Assembly: GCA_038128265.1 (NCBI GenBank)
Contig: JAYPJE010000032.1
Span: 1 to 49,659, forward strand
Direction of reading: 5' to 3'
Length of the DNA stretch: 49,659 nt
Origin: Gemmatimonadota bacterium
Lineage (GTDB): Bacteria > Latescibacterota > UBA2968 > UBA8231
Under the pieces are notes generated by a model. That model had not been told where the DNA came from and did no database searches. It saw nothing but the letters and a program-made list of their open reading frames with translations. The position numbers were made by a program, and so were the translations under genes. This document shows positions 154-6,789 of this stretch, piece by piece; positions within the stretch are counted from its first letter, which is position 1, and each line of letters starts with the position of its first letter.

Positions 154-1518
154 TTAGGCCAGCTGCTGTGCGCTGTCGCGCAGAGATGGATAGCGATCGG
201 CTAGAGTTTCGGCCGCCTCGACCCGCTCCAACTGACCATCGGTGCTCCAGTAGACAGTCTGGCAGACGGGCTTGATAAAGCGCTGTGCCAGCGTTTGCAC
301 ATAGGAACCCTGCGCTGGTAATAGCAGGATATCTCCCACTGCTAAATGCGTTCCGTAATAGGCGTACCCCCACAGGTCATGGGGCGTGCACAGCGATCCG
401 TAGACTCGGCAGCGCCGCTGCTGGGTCGATGGGTGGCTCAGGTTGATAAGCGGGCAGTGTTCGCTCTCCAGGCGCTCCCATCCCAGCAAATTGGTGCCCC
501 CATCGGCAATAGCGATATCGTCGCTTTTGACATCGGCCACCTGCAGCAAGATATGCACGCCCTTATTCGCTATGTAGCGACCAGGTTCCAGCCACAGTGC
601 GAGCGGGCCGACTTTCGAGCTGACGGATTGGTCAAAGGCGGTGAAGACCTCGCTGGCCATATCCTCTATCGGCTGCACGTCGTGCAGCAGGTAGCGCAGG
701 TCCCAATCCGCGGCCGGTGCATCGGCGCCGTCTTGGCCGCTGAGCGCGCGCAGGCGCTGGGCATCGGTTAGCCACGGATAGACCGCCTCGTCGTCTTCGG
801 GGTAAAAGCCGCCGCCTATATCGACAAATTTCCAACCGTCAGTCGGTATATGAGCGGCCAGCAAAGGGCCTAGGGCGCGCAGGGTTTCCACATAGCCGCG
901 AGCCTGGCGATTCCAGCTGAGATGGAACTGCACCCCCTGCAACTGCACCCAATTCATCATTCTAGCTGCTGCCGCGAATTCACCGAGAGCGCCGGCGGGA
1001 ATGCCGAACTTTGTCCAGTTGCCGTGTGCATCCGTATTGAGTCGGATGCCCGTGCGAATGGGCGTTTGGCGCCGTGCGGCCAGCGCTTCCAGACGCTCCA
1101 ACTCCGCAAAGCTGTCTAGGTGCACCGTGACTCTATCGGCGTGGTCGAGCGCTAGCTCGAGCTCGCTGTCGCTCTTGGCCGGGCCCGAAAGGACGATGTG
1201 GGGAAAGGCGCAGTGCAGGGCCAGTTCGAGTTCGAGTCCGGACGATGCGTCGGCACACAGGCCGGCACGACAGGCCGTCTGCACGACGGGCAGAGATGGG
1301 TTGGACTTGAGGGCGTAGTGCGTTCGCGTCGGCTGCTGTGGGTGGCTAAAAGCGCGTAAGAACCGCTCGGCTTGGGCATGGATACGCGCCTCGTCGACCA
1401 AGTATTGTGGCGTGCCGAATGTTTCGCTCGCGGCGAGGAAATATCCGCGCTGTGATAGGCACTGGTCGACCAGTGAGCTGAGTTCACCGGCGCGGAGGGT
1501 AGGCGTAGAAGATATCAT
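154..1518 (-). CDS. PLP-dependent decarboxylase, Orn/DAP/Arg (LysA-like, fold type III) family; substrate unknown
   Basis: Motifs YALKSN (PLP lysine), DASSGLE, KFG, DIGGGF, EPGRY, GSLCTPHD. FHLSWN replaces the usual HIGSQ, and there is a long insert after GGGF, so it is probably not housekeeping LysA. Confidence 0.85.
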   Translation of the reverse strand: MISSTPTLRAGELSSLVDQCLSQRGYFLAASETFGTPQYLVDEARIHAQAERFLRAFSHPQQPTRTHYALKSNPSLPVVQTACRAGLCADASSGLELELALHCAFPHIVLSGPAKSDSELELALDHADRVTVHLDSFAELERLEALAARRQTPIRTGIRLNTDAHGNWTKFGIPAGALGEFAAAARMMNWVQLQGVQFHLSWNRQARGYVETLRALGPLLAAHIPTDGWKFVDIGGGFYPEDDEAVYPWLTDAQRLRALSGQDGADAPAADWDLRYLLHDVQPIEDMASEVFTAFDQSVSSKVGPLALWLEPGRYIANKGVHILLQVADVKSDDIAIADGGTNLLGWERLESEHCPLINLSHPSTQQRRCRVYGSLCTPHDLWGYAYYGTHLAVGDILLLPAQGSYVQTLAQRFIKPVCQTVYWSTDGQLERVEAAETLADRYPSLRDSAQQLA

Positions 1519-2777
1519 AGCGGATTTGGTTCCAATTCGTTGGCGAAGGTGATATGCACGGCATCAGACAATTCTCTCCACAGATCTGCTAGGCCGCTTG
1601 AATCGGGGCAATAAGCGAGGCAAGAAGCGACAATACGATCTTCGTAGCTACCGGCCCAATGGCGCAGCGTATCGCCTGGTTCGCAGTAGGCCTCGATCAA
1701 TTTGTAAAAGCTGCCGTGGGCGCGCAGGGCGGAAAAATCGATCTGCTGTATCGTGCCTTCGCGATCGCTCATGAGGTGCAGTGCACACAGCGGACGCCGC
1801 GGATGCGGCCAGTGAATGGCACGCGGGGTTTCGCCGATGGCCGCCTCGCAGGTAGCGCGTATGGGATCGTAATTAAACGCTGCTCTGCACAGGTCGGGCA
1901 AGCAGTCTCCGCCCGGACGGGGGGCCATCTCCAGCAGGTAAAACACGTCGTTAGAGAGGATGAGATCGGCCATGCCGATGCCGCGCATCATGCCCACCGC
2001 GCGCGCGGCTTGGCGCAGCGTGTCCTGTAGCTGGCGGCGCAGTCGCTGCGGTAGGTGTGGGATGCAATAGCCGCCGACGACGCCTGCCTGTGTGGGCGTT
2101 TCAACGAGGAACTTTTCACATAGGCGCAGAATGCGCAGGCGCTGTCCCTCGATAAAAAAGTCGACGCCAAACTCGCGGCCTTGAATACACCGCTGGGCTA
2201 GGTAGGCGGGCGATGGATCGTTGGGAAAGCGCTCCCGCAGACCGTGCTGGATGCGCGTATGGGCATCGGCTAACTGGCTTGGGTCGTCGATGCGCAAGAC
2301 CCATTCGCTGCCCGTCGCATCGATGGGCTTTATTATCCAAGGGGGAGAGCAGGTCGAAGCAAAGGTTTCCAATTCACTCAGGTCGTCGATGCGCTGTGCG
2401 GTCGGCACGGGAACGCCGCTGCGCTCCCACAGCGCGCCGCACCGCGCCTTGTCGCGCAGGAGAGCGGCCGTCTGTACGTCGACGTAGGGCAGACCCAGTC
2501 CAGCTGCTAAGAGTGCAGTTAGGGGTAGGTATTCACAGACAAAGCAGGCGATACCCGCGTAGCAAAGACGCTGTGTGAGAGCGTAGTCGGTGGCGCAGCG
2601 CAGCGCAGCTCGACCGTCGCTCAGATCGGCAGCGAGCGCGCGGAAGCCGGCCGTACGCAGCTCTTTAGCACGGGCTGGCCGCGCGATAAATACGGCGTTG
2701 GGGAAGTGGCTACATACTCGTCTGGCATAGTCCAGACTGGGGTGTACCACCAGTAATGGATTGTTTGAATGGGTCAT
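1515..2777 (-). CDS. ATP-grasp ligase (L-amino-acid ligase-like) 3
   Basis: LRDK, IKPIDATGSEWV, QRCIQGREFGVD, LEMAPRPGGD; LAL-type C-terminal domain. Stop overlaps the decarboxylase start. Confidence 0.85.
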   Translation of the reverse strand: MTHSNNPLLVVHPSLDYARRVCSHFPNAVFIARPARAKELRTAGFRALAADLSDGRAALRCATDYALTQRLCYAGIACFVCEYLPLTALLAAGLGLPYVDVQTAALLRDKARCGALWERSGVPVPTAQRIDDLSELETFASTCSPPWIIKPIDATGSEWVLRIDDPSQLADAHTRIQHGLRERFPNDPSPAYLAQRCIQGREFGVDFFIEGQRLRILRLCEKFLVETPTQAGVVGGYCIPHLPQRLRRQLQDTLRQAARAVGMMRGIGMADLILSNDVFYLLEMAPRPGGDCLPDLCRAAFNYDPIRATCEAAIGETPRAIHWPHPRRPLCALHLMSDREGTIQQIDFSALRAHGSFYKLIEAYCEPGDTLRHWAGSYEDRIVASCLAYCPDSSGLADLWRELSDAVHITFANELEPNPL

Positions 2778-2778
2778 G

Positions 2779-4095
2779 TCAGGATGTAATTGGATCGGTG
2801 TCGATATGAAATACGACGCGTGAGTACAGCGACTCTAGTGCGGCATCGGCACCGGGTAGGTCGGCAGCACACACGCTCATATAGCCTAGAAACTCAAAGC
2901 CGTCAGGCGGGATCAACACCCGTTCGCCAACGGAAAAGTCGAGGCACAGTTCGCTCAGGCGCGGGTCACTTTGCACGTCATCAATACCGTCGATACGCGC
3001 AATGATGCCCGACTTTTCGGGCAAAAAATAGCGCATTTTCATTGCCCCCTGCGGATGTCGACGCGGGTAGTTTCGGGGCTGTCCACTGGCAATAAGCGCG
3101 CCTTCAGCGTAGATGTCGATGCCGTGCAGCGAGTGCAGGAAGTCGGCAATATTGTCGGCGCCGCGCCGCGCCGCGATTTCGAGCACGCAGATGGCATCGC
3201 CGTCGATTTTTAACTCGCAGTGAAAACAGCTGTTGCGCAGGCCCAGTGCCCGAACGGCGCTGGCGGCGGCATCTTGGATGGCCTCTTCGCGCGCCGAGCC
3301 CAGATGTGTTGGCATCCATTCCTCGTATTCGAGAAAGTAGTCCTCGTCTTTGATGCGCTCGATTTCAATAACGCCAAAGCAGCTCACCTCGCCGTCGCTG
3401 ACAATGCCGTCAACGCTCACCTGCTGTCCGGGGATAAAGCCCTCTAATAGGAAGTGCTCTCGCGGGTCGAAGACGTCGGCTGAGGCAATGCCACGACCTG
3501 CTTCAGGCAGCCAAAATTCGAACGGATACTGGGGATTTTCCTCGCGGTAGCTATCGATGTAGGTCCGCACTGATTCAACGTGTGCGGCGATGGTGTCCAA
3601 TCCGTCCTCCGGCATGAGGCGCACGACGCCGTAGCTCGAAGAGCCGCTAATCGGTTTGAGCACCATCGGGCGGTCGTGCTGCTGTAGTATAGAACGTGCC
3701 TGCTGAGCGCTGTTGACCAAGTGGAACTCGGGTGTGGGCAGGCCGGCGTCGCGCATCGCTGTGCGCATGAGGTATTTGTTGCGCGCGCGCAGCGCGGCGG
3801 CCGGAGCGTTGGCCGGTAGGCCGAGGTGTTCGGCGATAAAGCTGGCGCCGAGCACGCCGCTTTCTGAAAAGCTAAGCACGCCGTCGACGGGGTCGCGCCT
3901 GTTGAGGTCAACCGCACAGGCTAGTGCTGCACTGAGGTCTTCCTGGTAGTCGATGTCAAACGTCGCATCGAAACAGGCCTGATCGCTGGCGTTTGGGCAG
4001 CGCTTTATTAGGCTGGCGCGAAAGCCGAGCGCGCGCAGACGCTCAACATAGGGGCGCGCATCACCGGCCGTATGAACAAAGAGTAGATGTTTCAT
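2779..4095 (-). CDS. ATP-grasp ligase (L-amino-acid ligase-like) 2
   Basis: ARNKYLMR, LKPISGSSSYGV, EGFIPGQQVSVDG, HCELK, LEIAARRGAD; LAL-type C-terminal domain. Confidence 0.88.
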   Translation of the reverse strand: MKHLLFVHTAGDARPYVERLRALGFRASLIKRCPNASDQACFDATFDIDYQEDLSAALACAVDLNRRDPVDGVLSFSESGVLGASFIAEHLGLPANAPAAALRARNKYLMRTAMRDAGLPTPEFHLVNSAQQARSILQQHDRPMVLKPISGSSSYGVVRLMPEDGLDTIAAHVESVRTYIDSYREENPQYPFEFWLPEAGRGIASADVFDPREHFLLEGFIPGQQVSVDGIVSDGEVSCFGVIEIERIKDEDYFLEYEEWMPTHLGSAREEAIQDAAASAVRALGLRNSCFHCELKIDGDAICVLEIAARRGADNIADFLHSLHGIDIYAEGALIASGQPRNYPRRHPQGAMKMRYFLPEKSGIIARIDGIDDVQSDPRLSELCLDFSVGERVLIPPDGFEFLGYMSVCAADLPGADAALESLYSRVVFHIDTDPITS

Positions 4096-5366
4096 CCTGC
4101 GGCCTCGGTATGGTAGAATACCTGCTGCTGGTCCTCAATGACAAAGGCGCTTTGCAGGCGAGCAGCCTGCGCATCTATGCGCCGGCTGGCCTCGCGGTAG
4201 CTGCGTCCCCATACGCTGATCCAAGCAAGGTTGTCATAGCCGTGCGGCGGGACGGCTACGCAGTCGCCGGGCCCCTTGGTGAGCACCACTTCGATGAGGT
4301 TGCGGCTAGCCCGCGGTTGGCCTCTGCGCTCGAGGCGCACGAGCCCCGGTTTTTCCGGAACGAGCGTGCGCGAGATACCGTAGCCTAGGGCGGCAGTCGC
4401 CGGACTGACTGGCTGACCGAGTGCGGCGCGTATGTTTTCTATAGCTAGGTCAATTCCATAGACGCGCTGTACCAGTGCGTGAATGCAGTCGCCGCCCATG
4501 CGCGCACCTATTTCGATAATGCGGGGGCCGTCAGCGGTGATTTTGACTTCTGCATGGATGCCGCAGTTGTCTAATTCCAGCGCGGCGACGCCGTTGCGCA
4601 CCATGGTGCGAATCTGTTGCTGCACGTCCTCGGGAAAGAGCGAGGGCGTGGTTTCGCCGCGCTCTACAAAGCTGTCTTCGTCCATCTTGGCCTTGTCGAT
4701 GATGGCATAGATGGTCACCTGTCCGTTTTGCACAACGCCTTCGACGCTGACCTCCGGGCCGATGAGCAGGCTTTCGAGCACGTAGGTTCCGCTCTGGTAG
4801 CGATAGATGCAGTCTTGAATGCGCACGTCATCGCGTATGGACTGGAAGGTCTGGATGGCCTGCGGCGGCGTTTCGACGCGCAGCACCCATTCGCTATCGG
4901 AACCCCATTCCGGTTTCAGCACGGCGGGTGTGCCGACCGCGGCGCAGGCCTCGATCAGCGAGCTGTGGTCGAAAAAGCGGCGAAATGTGGGAACCGGCAC
5001 GCCGGCCTGTTCAAAGGCGCGCCGCATGCGGTATTTGCTGCGTGCGGCGAGTGCGGCCTGCGGGGCGTTGCCGGGCAAGCCGAGGCGAGCGCTGATCAGC
5101 GCACAGGTTGGCACGTCTTCCTCCCAGAAGGTCACGATGCCGTCGAACTGCTCGCGGCTATGGAGATCTTCGGCGAGTGCGACAACTTCGGGAATGCTGA
5201 GTCCGGCTGTGCAGTGCGTTTGTTGGACGAGAGAAGAGGCCCAGTTGGTCTCTGGATTCAACAGGTGGACCTGGGCGCCGAGTTGGCTGGCGGCGACAAA
5301 GGTCATGCGCTTCTTCGGGGATCCGCTATGGACGAAGAGCAGCTTGGGCGAGCGGGGTTCGATCAT
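4092..5366 (-). CDS. ATP-grasp ligase (L-amino-acid ligase-like) 1
   Basis: ARSKYRMR, LKPEWGSDSEWV, ESLLIGPEVSVEG, HAEVK, IEIGARMGGD; GGAGG RBS upstream; ATGA overlap with the next gene. Confidence 0.9.
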   Translation of the reverse strand: MIEPRSPKLLFVHSGSPKKRMTFVAASQLGAQVHLLNPETNWASSLVQQTHCTAGLSIPEVVALAEDLHSREQFDGIVTFWEEDVPTCALISARLGLPGNAPQAALAARSKYRMRRAFEQAGVPVPTFRRFFDHSSLIEACAAVGTPAVLKPEWGSDSEWVLRVETPPQAIQTFQSIRDDVRIQDCIYRYQSGTYVLESLLIGPEVSVEGVVQNGQVTIYAIIDKAKMDEDSFVERGETTPSLFPEDVQQQIRTMVRNGVAALELDNCGIHAEVKITADGPRIIEIGARMGGDCIHALVQRVYGIDLAIENIRAALGQPVSPATAALGYGISRTLVPEKPGLVRLERRGQPRASRNLIEVVLTKGPGDCVAVPPHGYDNLAWISVWGRSYREASRRIDAQAARLQSAFVIEDQQQVFYHTEAAG

Positions 5367-5461: not shown

Positions 5462-6487
5462 TTAAACGAATTGATCGTCGGAGTCGCCGCGGACAACGGT
5501 GATTTGTCCCTGCTCCTCCAACTGGCGGACCTGCTGCACGATGCGCAGCTGGACCTCTTCTACTTCGGATACGCGCATCGGTCCGAGGAATTCCATCTCC
5601 TCGGTTATGTAGGTTCGCACGCGCTCGGACATATTGCCGAGAATCTTGTTTTTCAGCTCTTCACCGGCCGTCTTGAGCGCAATGACCAGATCCTTCTGAT
5701 CGACTTCGCGCATCAGCGTCTGTATTTCTCGATCGGTCAGCCGTACGATGTCGGCAAAGACGAACATCAGGTTGCGCACCGACTCTGCTACTTCTGGGTC
5801 CATGGCATCCATCTGGTCGAGGACGTTTTTTTCGACGGATGAGCCGGTCAGGTTGAGCATATCGGCAATGACGCGGGGGCCGCCGACGTCCTGGTTGCCG
5901 CCCAGCACGTCGCGCAGCGAGGCCTCGAGGCTTTCTTCGATCTGCTTGAGGACGGCGGGCGTGATGTTTTCCATCGTGGCTATGCGATAAGCAACGCCGG
6001 CCTGCAGGCGCTCGGGTAGCTGTGAGAGAATGCCCGAAGCCTGAGCCGAATCCAGCTGCGATAGGATAAGCGCGATGGTTTGTGGATGTTCGTGGCTTAT
6101 AAAGGGAGCAATCTGCTCGGGCGAGACGTTGCGCAGCATGTAGAAACCAGAGGCCACGCGGCTGCTGACGCGGTCGAGTATTTCCTGTGCCTTGCGCGGG
6201 CCAACCGCGCGTTCGAGAGCATTGCGGGCAAAGTCGATGCCGCCCTGACTGATCCATTCACCGGCCAGCAGGTGCTGTTCGAAGTCCTCGAGAACGCGGT
6301 CCATCACTTCGACGGAAACGCTCTTGAGTGCTGCTATAGACTGGGTTATTTCCTCGACCTCGTAATCGGAGAGGTGCTTCATTACCTCTCCGGCCACGTC
6401 GTGGCCGAGGGCGACCATGACGATGGCTACGCGCTGGCGCAGGGGGATTTCGGGTTCTTCGCTAACTTCTGCTGTAGCTGAGGCCAT
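5462..6487 (-). CDS. fliG: Flagellar motor switch protein FliG (full length, stand-alone)
   Basis: QGGIDFARNALERAVG, EHPQTIALILSQL, GG linker, MFVF motif, NMSER..EEMEFLGPMRVSEVEEVQ. ATG at 6487 preferred over the track's TTG at 6496. Confidence 0.95.
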   Translation of the reverse strand: MASATAEVSEEPEIPLRQRVAIVMVALGHDVAGEVMKHLSDYEVEEITQSIAALKSVSVEVMDRVLEDFEQHLLAGEWISQGGIDFARNALERAVGPRKAQEILDRVSSRVASGFYMLRNVSPEQIAPFISHEHPQTIALILSQLDSAQASGILSQLPERLQAGVAYRIATMENITPAVLKQIEESLEASLRDVLGGNQDVGGPRVIADMLNLTGSSVEKNVLDQMDAMDPEVAESVRNLMFVFADIVRLTDREIQTLMREVDQKDLVIALKTAGEELKNKILGNMSERVRTYITEEMEFLGPMRVSEVEEVQLRIVQQVRQLEEQGQITVVRGDSDDQFV

Positions 6488-6494
6488 TGGCAAC

Positions 6495-6529
6495 AAAAAA
6501 ACCGCACAAGTAAACTATACCAGTGCGGC
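6495..6529 (-). terminator. Intrinsic terminator in the fliG leader (riboswitch expression platform)
   Basis: Minus strand GCCGCAC-TGGTATAGTTTACTT-GTGCGG-TTTTTTT, ending about 8 nt before the fliG ATG. Confidence 0.8.
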
Positions 6530-6582
6530 CTTTGCTACTCGCGCGAAGGAGTTGTCTAAATAGACCGCACTGAACGAATGGC

Positions 6583-6675
6583 CTTCGACAGTGCGGCTGT
6601 CCTTAGGTGGCCAGAGGCCAGATGAGGACCCGTTCCTTCGCGTCCTACGCTTTCGCGTAGTTTGCCTTTTCGAAA
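6583..6675 (-). ncRNA. c-di-GMP-I (GEMM-I)-like riboswitch aptamer, variant ligand pocket
   Basis: Minus strand TTTCG-AAAAGGCAAA-CTACGC-GAAA-GCGTAG-GACGC-GAAGGAACGG-GTCCTCA..TGGCC-TCT-GGCCA..CTAAGGAC-AGCCG-CACTGT-CGAAG. Shows P1 (TTTCG/CGAAG), P2 with GAAA tetraloop, GGCAAAC/GACGC core, receptor-like element and AGCCG. Lies upstream of a flagellar gene and a terminator. Confidence 0.85.
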
Positions 6676-6789
6676 CGAAGACTGAGTGAAAATGTGAATA
6701 TTATGCCCAAAAAAATCAAGGGCATATTTTTCCGACGAAGCATTATTTTTTTTCGCATCGTCAGTGGCGCTTCTTGGGCATATCGGATG

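Follow-up and report, generated by a model that had tools for sequence, protein, structure and literature searches.

Pocket variants of riboswitches have repeatedly revealed signals, as in the case of cGAMP, which came from the A20 variants of GEMM-I, and of ppGpp, PRPP, and others, which came from ykkC. Among the variants of the c-di-GMP-I class, the one named GGC was reportedly described by Weinberg et al. in 2017, and RNAs with G47, which have an Rfam variant family of their own, are said to have been proposed to have an altered specificity. The positions discussed here are numbered as in Vc2, in which P1 has G14-C93 as its uppermost pair and the pocket is lined by G20, A47, A48, and C92 (available portions of PMC3764141 and PMC6140456). 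In a secondary source, A47 is said to be conserved throughout the class I c-di-GMP riboswitches and to be their most important stacking base, whose mutation abolishes binding (PMC9049102, in the part available). The 3',3'-cGAMP riboswitch of Geobacter (GEMM-Ib, Gs1761) is built on the GEMM-I scaffold with a pocket substitution, A20 with A47 and C92, and is described in the accessible text of PMC6140456 as having an altered specificity. Position 92 has been modified in the engineered Vc2 mutants C92U and G20A/C92U (PDB 3MUR, 3MUT, and 3MUV); the accessible parts of three sources describe weakened sensing of c-di-GMP for C92U and binding of c-di-AMP for G20A/C92U (PMC7288161, PMC9049102, bioRxiv 10.1101/617340). 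Release 15 of Rfam contains families for the GGC (RF03167) and UAU (RF03168) variants, which match the two named variants mentioned in the original prediction, and no G/G/U family. We found no publication naming a G/G/U variant in a literature search that did not extend to the variant-defining paper and its supplement, where an earlier mention is possible.

A G/G/U pocket on the c-di-GMP-I scaffold

In the 49,659-nt stretch of Gemmatimonadota DNA analyzed here (the window, from genome G000), a GEMM-I fold with an unusual ligand pocket had been predicted by eye. A cmscan of the whole window against Rfam returned a single match above threshold, to RF01051 (c-di-GMP-I; minus strand, 6584-6676; E 3.1e-07); its 51.4 bits exceed the gathering score of 35 bits, which places the RNA in this family and bears out the predicted fold. 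The RF01051 alignment is ungapped across the 5' core. Model columns were converted into Vc2 numbers via published facts on the pocket and P1 together with our own reading of the consensus: position 20 corresponds to model position 11, the G that precedes the paired GC, position 47 to model position 38, the base 3' of GACGC, and position 92 to the first C of the consensus gCCgaa. The letters found at these positions are G, G, and U (table 1). The same three letters were obtained with RF03167, in whose alignment the C of position 92 is marked as an unpaired junction base preceding the P1 pair, and with R1, a covariance model built here from 16 relatives, so that three models agree with the assignment made by eye and none of them places A at 47 and C at 92. 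A pattern with G47 and U92 matched once in the window and in none of 100 shuffles. The observation of a G/G/U pocket is thus confirmed.

The window RNA shares with Vc2 the three-helix junction, the GAAA-capped P2, the GGCAAAC and GACGC-N-AA core, G20, A48, and A49, and the G21-C46 and C22-G45 pairs and the remaining core are also unchanged. It differs from Vc2 in having G for A at position 47, where the A intercalates between the bases of the ligand, and U for C at position 92, as well as an outward-shifted P1 and a long J1/2 (9-14 unpaired bases in G/G/U RNAs). Judging from the sequence, the GAAA loop of P2 and a CCUAAG element seen on the 3' strand of P3 may form a tetraloop-receptor contact.

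The best-scoring Rfam model for the window RNA is RF03167, with 58.6 bits for a cut-off of 59, that is, 0.4 bit short. Like the GGC variant, the window RNA has G20 and G47, but the RF03167 model has a conserved C92 and an ordinary consensus for P1 and J1/2, so that its G20/G47/C92 pocket differs from the G/G/U observed here. RF03168 gives 48.6 bits (cut-off 65.9), and only U92 of its U20/A47/U92 signature is common to both. The A20 of GEMM-Ib is replaced by G at 6666. The engineered Vc2 mutants share U92 with the window RNA, but they are laboratory made and retain A47. Within the phylum, the RF03167 threshold does not separate pocket variants: the cut-off is passed by three G/A/C RNAs (G061, 67.5 bits; G067, 61.4 bits; G026, 59.2 bits), and L003, which is G/A/C by the R1 alignment, is yet labeled GGC after clan competition. 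Automatic GGC labels therefore need a check of the pocket by eye. A weak second RF03167 match in G000, with C20 and 22 bits, was not confirmed by R1.

Table 1. Features of the riboswitch, its leader, and the downstream genes in the window
Feature	Position	Strand	Basis or remark
Position 20 = G	6666	-	RF01051, RF03167, and R1 alignments
Position 47 = G (A in ordinary members)	6639	-	same three models; constant in diverged strain contigs covering 6639
Position 92 = U (C in ordinary members)	6588	-	same three models; constant in diverged strain contigs
P1 5' strand, conserved distal (GUCUUCG)	6676-6682	-	pairs best with the 3' strand in 9/9 G/G/U RNAs
P1 3' strand (CGAAGGC)	6581-6587	-	duplex search and covariation
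Extended J1/2 (UUUCG + AAAA), 9 unpaired bases before G20	6667-6675	-	duplex-partner search
P2 hairpin, GAAA tetraloop	6645-6660	-	Rfam alignment; 3 P2 pairs change on both sides
P3, variable tip, CCUAAG on 3' strand	6590-6637	-	Rfam alignment; helices 4 and 5 100% paired, almost invariant
Putative promoter (TTGATT 6714-6719, 17-nt spacer, CACATT 6691-6696)	6691-6719	-	proposed by eye
Segment a, GCCGCACUG, 3' part of the aptamer	6589-6598	-	pairs with b
Switching segment b, CAGUGCGGUC	6563-6572	-	complementary to a and to terminator 5' arm c
Terminator 5' arm c, GGCCGCACUG	6521-6530	-	fold
Terminator 3' arm d, GUGCGG	6502-6507	-	followed by U7 at 6495-6501
Intrinsic terminator, whole	6495-6530	-	hairpin ending at U run, about -18.8 kcal/mol including a neighboring small stem
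fliG paralogue, 341 aa	5462-6487	-	Pfam FliG_N, FliG_M, FliG_C; TIGR00207, 346 bits (cut-off 226.7)
ATP-grasp (L-amino-acid-ligase-like) gene 1	4092-5366	-	profile matches
ATP-grasp (L-amino-acid-ligase-like) gene 2	2779-4095	-	profile matches
ATP-grasp (L-amino-acid-ligase-like) gene 3	1515-2777	-	profile matches
PLP decarboxylase, Orn/DAP/Arg type	154-1518	-	profile matches

P1 was located by searching, in each of 52 RNAs, for the upstream segment that pairs best with the 12 bases past position 92. In all nine G/G/U RNAs, the 3' strand of P1 starts at position 93 and its 5' strand lies far upstream, with 9-14 unpaired bases before G20, whereas ordinary relatives have 4-7; J1/2 is lengthened by 4-9 nt in the G/G/U type. 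The gap before G20 is at most 8 in 33 of the 43 other RNAs, and the best P1 duplexes of the remaining 10 are weak (-2.2 to -7.4 kcal/mol). A proximal P1, made of UUUCG and CGAAG as in the Rfam alignment, can form in the window RNA but was rejected: L107 has it broken and L093 lacks it, whereas pairing of the distal strand is seen in 9/9. The aptamer had earlier been given the span 6583-6675, which captures the right fold but stops short of the conserved P1 5' strand. At 6671-6682 of the window, and at the equivalent place in relatives, the J1/2 insert (6671-6675) resembles an incomplete copy of the P1 5' strand, UCUUCG followed by UUUCG, which offers two alternative 5' strands to a single P1 3' strand.

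The nine G/G/U sequences were aligned (A3) and evaluated with a hand-drawn structure of 28 pairs, derived from these same, related sequences, under which 94.0% of cells are standard pairs, versus 28-41% after sliding of the partners. Two-sided changes occur in six pairs, of which P1 and P2 have three each; the covariation score was reached by none of 500 shuffles, and the count of pairs changing on both sides by 17 of 500. P3 and the junction are invariant in A3 and give no covariation signal in either direction. The junction of P1, P2, and P3 with a GNRA-capped P2 and covariation, characteristic of c-di-GMP-I, is thus present. Homologs support the pocket that had been predicted, in that G47 and U92 are kept in 9/9 G/G/U RNAs against a background of covariation in P1 and P2. 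Covariation accompanies the conservation of the three-helix aptamer, and G47, U92, the outward-shifted P1, and the long J1/2 are common to the nine.

The mismatches in lower P3, which had raised the suspicion of a decaying aptamer, are real. However, seven of eight relatives have these two non-standard pairs flagged in their alignments as well, and the eighth has one of them; as these relatives include ordinary G/A/C RNAs, the mismatches are a trait of the lineage and not a sign of decay. Strain contigs were obtained from four metagenome runs, and the diverged pieces that cover 6482-6647, which come from two runs, have 3-14 differences, all outside 6588 and 6639; a change at 6589, next to position 92, is seen in one contig.

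Distribution of the G/G/U type in the phylum

In its own genome, the window RNA is the sole match. Among 40 relatives, RNAs with G47 and U92 were found in two further genomes of the genus (G001 and G002), one upstream of fliG in each, and G001 has a second one upstream of a non-fliG gene; the RNAs of the other genera among these relatives are G/A/C. In 151 genomes of the phylum, sampled without selection, 24 genomes gave a total of 48 matches, which were aligned with R1 together with L003 and three pattern-scan matches (54 rows, 52 distinct RNAs). These comprise 35 G/A/C, 9 G/G/U, and 4 A/A/C RNAs and one each of G/G/C, G/A/U, A/A/U, and C/A/C. Six of the G/G/U RNAs come from the unselected sample, two of them from G001 and one each from G000, G002, G120, and G122, the last two genomes belonging to another family of the same class. 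L081, L089, and L093, which come from scans requiring G47 and U92, were left out of the frequencies.

These pattern scans gave 69 matches in genome_contigs, a number near chance expectation, of which only 4 are true GEMM RNAs (three from records with Gemmatimonadota in the title and one from a short contig belonging to a MAG with Latescibacterota in the title), and 11 matches in metagenomes, of which 3 are true GEMM RNAs. As the pattern required C93, it missed the type found in G120 and G122, which has U93, so that rarity outside the phylum holds for that pattern only. No further G/G/U member was found among 31 genomes of the G120 family, and none of the G/G/U genomes has a G/A/C copy beside the G/G/U one. 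We also attempted a comparison by orthologous replacement in the genus of G120 and G122; the G/A/C RNA of G094 lies upstream of a different gene, and the comparison was uninformative. G/G/U RNAs are therefore a small, rare, and coherent G20/G47/U92 subclass in a few Gemmatimonadota, marked by G47, U92, and the shifted P1.

Several other pocket combinations were encountered in the phylum. L118 (G080:C81:19636-19736) is a GEMM-I RNA with A20/A47/U92, the pocket of the engineered G20A/C92U mutant, which makes it a natural c-di-AMP candidate, and four Gemmatimonadota RNAs with A20/A47/C92 (L117, L140, L126, and L142, in G111, G116, G047, and G041) have the cGAMP-type signature. In genome G041, GEMM-I copies with a core of GUCGC/UUCGC number 17 or more (L105, L122, and L128-L145), and among them are single G/G/C (L130), G/A/U (L141), and A/A/C (L142) RNAs. 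Two tandem GEMM-I aptamers, about 30 nt apart, are found in L111 (G047:C222, 1495-1596 and 1625-1735).

Expression platform and downstream genes

The putative promoter would start the transcript a few bases before P1, and inspection by eye showed a TTGA-type hexamer at equal distance and a -10-like element upstream of all nine G/G/U leaders. A simple sigma-70/terminator scan called neither this promoter nor the terminator listed in table 1, the latter because of its loop limit of 8. In the unconstrained minimum-energy fold of the window leader, segment a pairs with segment b, and arms c and d form the terminator. When the aptamer was forced, the terminator was still thermodynamically preferred, so that read-through would need b to capture c during transcription, that is, kinetic control. 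A hairpin followed by a U run lies downstream of the aptamer in seven of the nine G/G/U leaders, and no U-run terminator was seen in those of L089 and L081. G120 and G122 have the same four-part scheme, rebuilt from sequences that differ and comprising two terminators. In the leaders of L107 and L093, which precede a methyltransferase gene, the terminator hairpin includes the aptamer's own 3' strand, and the aptamer and the terminator thus exclude each other directly.

We consider it quite likely that the G/G/U riboswitch is a transcriptional ON switch. In the mechanism that we propose, an aptamer held together by its ligand (P1, 6676-6682 with 6581-6587, and P3) would lock segment a in, leaving b free to pair with the terminator 5' arm and allowing read-through into fliG and the ATP-grasp/decarboxylase operon, whereas without ligand a would pair with b, the terminator would form, and transcription would stop. 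The methyltransferase leaders of the relatives, in which the 3' half of the aptamer serves as terminator 5' arm, would follow the same ON logic in a direct form.

The leader is followed in the window by a fliG paralogue, three ATP-grasp genes, and a decarboxylase gene, and the reading frames of the last four (154-5366, minus strand) overlap or abut. G000 has three FliG genes, the other two being 71% and 45% identical. These other copies (G000:C26:13709-14695 and G000:C68:12803-13783) have no flagellar neighbors, and the window copy is followed by the ligase genes; the genome also has nine flagellin-like genes. In G120, a G/G/U riboswitch directly precedes the same four genes (three ATP-grasp genes and the decarboxylase) without fliG, and in G122 the first gene after the switch, the only one read there, is of the same ATP-grasp type. 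The gene after the switch is fliG in L089 and a SAM methyltransferase in both L107 and L093. Within the genus, the ligase operon is found in exactly the three genomes that bear the riboswitch. More distant ATP-grasp orthologues are present in G013, G016, and G019, and no GEMM-like RNA was found in the flanks examined there with filters off. The riboswitch probably turns on the fliG paralogue and a small peptide-ligase operon.

Synthases and candidate ligands

The window genome, which is 84% complete, encodes one active GGDEF domain with an Asp specificity residue and a GGEEF motif, two degenerate GGDEFs, and two diadenylate cyclase domains; neither an EAL domain nor a SMODS cyclase was found in it. 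At its N terminus, this only active diguanylate cyclase (G000:C1:46437-47450) bears a Rossmann-like domain (GxGxxG) some 170 aa long. All active GGDEFs of G001, G002, G120, G122, and G111 are also of the Asp/GGEEF type. In the five G/G/U genomes (G000, G001, G002, G120, and G122; 84-98% complete), neither a GGDEF of the Ser (Hypr) or Asn type nor a SMODS cyclase/CD-NTase was found; Hypr enzymes have Ser at the specificity residue and only GGDE[F/Y], according to the available text of PMC6456294. A search for DncV-like proteins in the same five genomes gave no match, and as it gave none in any control genome either, it is uninformative. Moreover, G111 has an A/A/C riboswitch yet only an Asp/GGEEF cyclase, which limits the power of a synthase test in this phylum. 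Co-occurrence of cyclase and riboswitch was considered and rejected, an orthologue of the diguanylate cyclase being present in 8/8 genomes of the genus versus 3/8 for the riboswitch.

Cyclases of the Asp/GGEEF type only and the lack of a G/A/C copy in the G/G/U genomes favor c-di-GMP as the ligand, and fliG is a classic kind of c-di-GMP target. The most economical guess is therefore a working ON riboswitch of c-di-GMP-I descent that senses c-di-GMP through a G-U wobble at position 92, a tentative reading to which we give somewhat less than an even chance. We propose that c-di-GMP would be provided by the single active Asp/GGEEF cyclase of G000; one guanine would be read by G20 in the usual way, the other would form a wobble pair with U92, and G47 would stack between the two, with an affinity probably below that of ordinary members. 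Vc2 C92U is reported to keep a reduced responsiveness to c-di-GMP in vivo and to respond under cyclase overexpression (bioRxiv 10.1101/617340, in the part available). As wild-type Vc2 binds c-di-GMP at about 0.011 nM (available text of PMC9049102), a large loss could still leave a useful affinity. On the other hand, position 47 is changed here, though A47 is described as invariant, which speaks against c-di-GMP, and two pocket bases and J1/2 that changed together and were then fixed look more like a new pocket than like drift.

Such a new pocket might have shifted specificity to an adenine-containing cyclic or linear dinucleotide, such as 3',3'-cGAMP in the register opposite to that of the Geobacter A20 class, pApG, or another mixed dinucleotide. 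C92 is Watson-Crick paired to the ligand's second guanine while G20 reads the Hoogsteen edge of the first (PMC5888326 and PMC6140456, in the parts available), and the engineered G20A/C92U mutant, which binds c-di-AMP according to the accessible text of PMC7288161, indicates that U92 can read an adenine. U92 and G47 are fixed in 9/9 members, and the A20 variants of the phylum (4 A/A/C and 1 A/A/U among 52) suggest that mixed-dinucleotide signaling may exist there. However, the search of the five G/G/U genomes for Ser- or Asn-type GGDEFs and for SMODS cyclases was negative, an argument whose power is limited by the case of G111, and all their active GGDEFs are Asp/GGEEF, so that the original idea of a cGAMP sensor in which U92 reads adenine finds no support. 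Nor does any of these genomes have an ordinary c-di-GMP copy beside the G/G/U one, unlike in the two-signal situation of Geobacter. We thus regard an ON switch with this changed specificity as fairly unlikely. Alternatively, the same scaffold could sense something other than the cyclic dinucleotides known from bacteria, for example, a purine-containing metabolite tied to the products of the ATP-grasp, decarboxylase, or methyltransferase enzymes, the long J1/2 being then part of the pocket. The joint change of three features (G47, U92, and a J1/2 longer by 4-9 nt) and the mostly biosynthetic nature of the regulated genes (three L-amino-acid-ligase-like enzymes, a decarboxylase, and a SAM methyltransferase) are in agreement with this scenario, and reuse of riboswitch scaffolds for other ligands is on record in the available portions of PMC7266159 and PMC9295807. 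Yet nothing else in the core has changed, G20, A48, A49, and the G21-C46 and C22-G45 pairs included, the gene set points to no candidate compound, and an ON switch on a biosynthetic operon would be unusual for the sensing of an end product. We regard such a ligand as unlikely.

Far less probable is a leader that is decaying or independent of any ligand, with a terminator that is constitutive or governed by a protein. Two pocket positions are off consensus and the constrained fold retains the terminator, which speaks for such a leader, but the G47/U92 combination is conserved in nine sequences, compensatory changes in P1 and P2 extend across two families of the class, G120 and G122 have rebuilt the four-part platforms from sequences that differ, and the core is invariant in diverged strains, so that we reject the decaying aptamer that had been put forward as the alternative to a new variant. 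A bolder possibility, which we judge doubtful though not far-fetched, is that G/G/U RNAs form a new specificity class on the GEMM-I scaffold, in which U92 would pair with an adenine or another non-guanine base while G47 and the long J1/2 reshape the pocket; a second dinucleotide-type signal, made by a synthase beyond the current family models, would then turn on the FliG paralogue and the peptide-ligase operon.

Irrespective of the ligand, G/G/U is a rare variant without an Rfam family of its own on the known c-di-GMP-I scaffold, in which two of the three ligand-contacting bases differ and stay fixed across genomes. If these RNAs bind c-di-GMP, they provide a natural G47/U92 solution with a retuned affinity, which shows how far the pocket tolerates change; if they bind another ligand, they point to a new signal and a hidden synthase. 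In the organism, the variant would tie a signal of the cyclic-dinucleotide type to output genes of an unusual kind, namely one FliG paralogue out of three together with an uncharacterized operon of three ATP-grasp enzymes and a decarboxylase.
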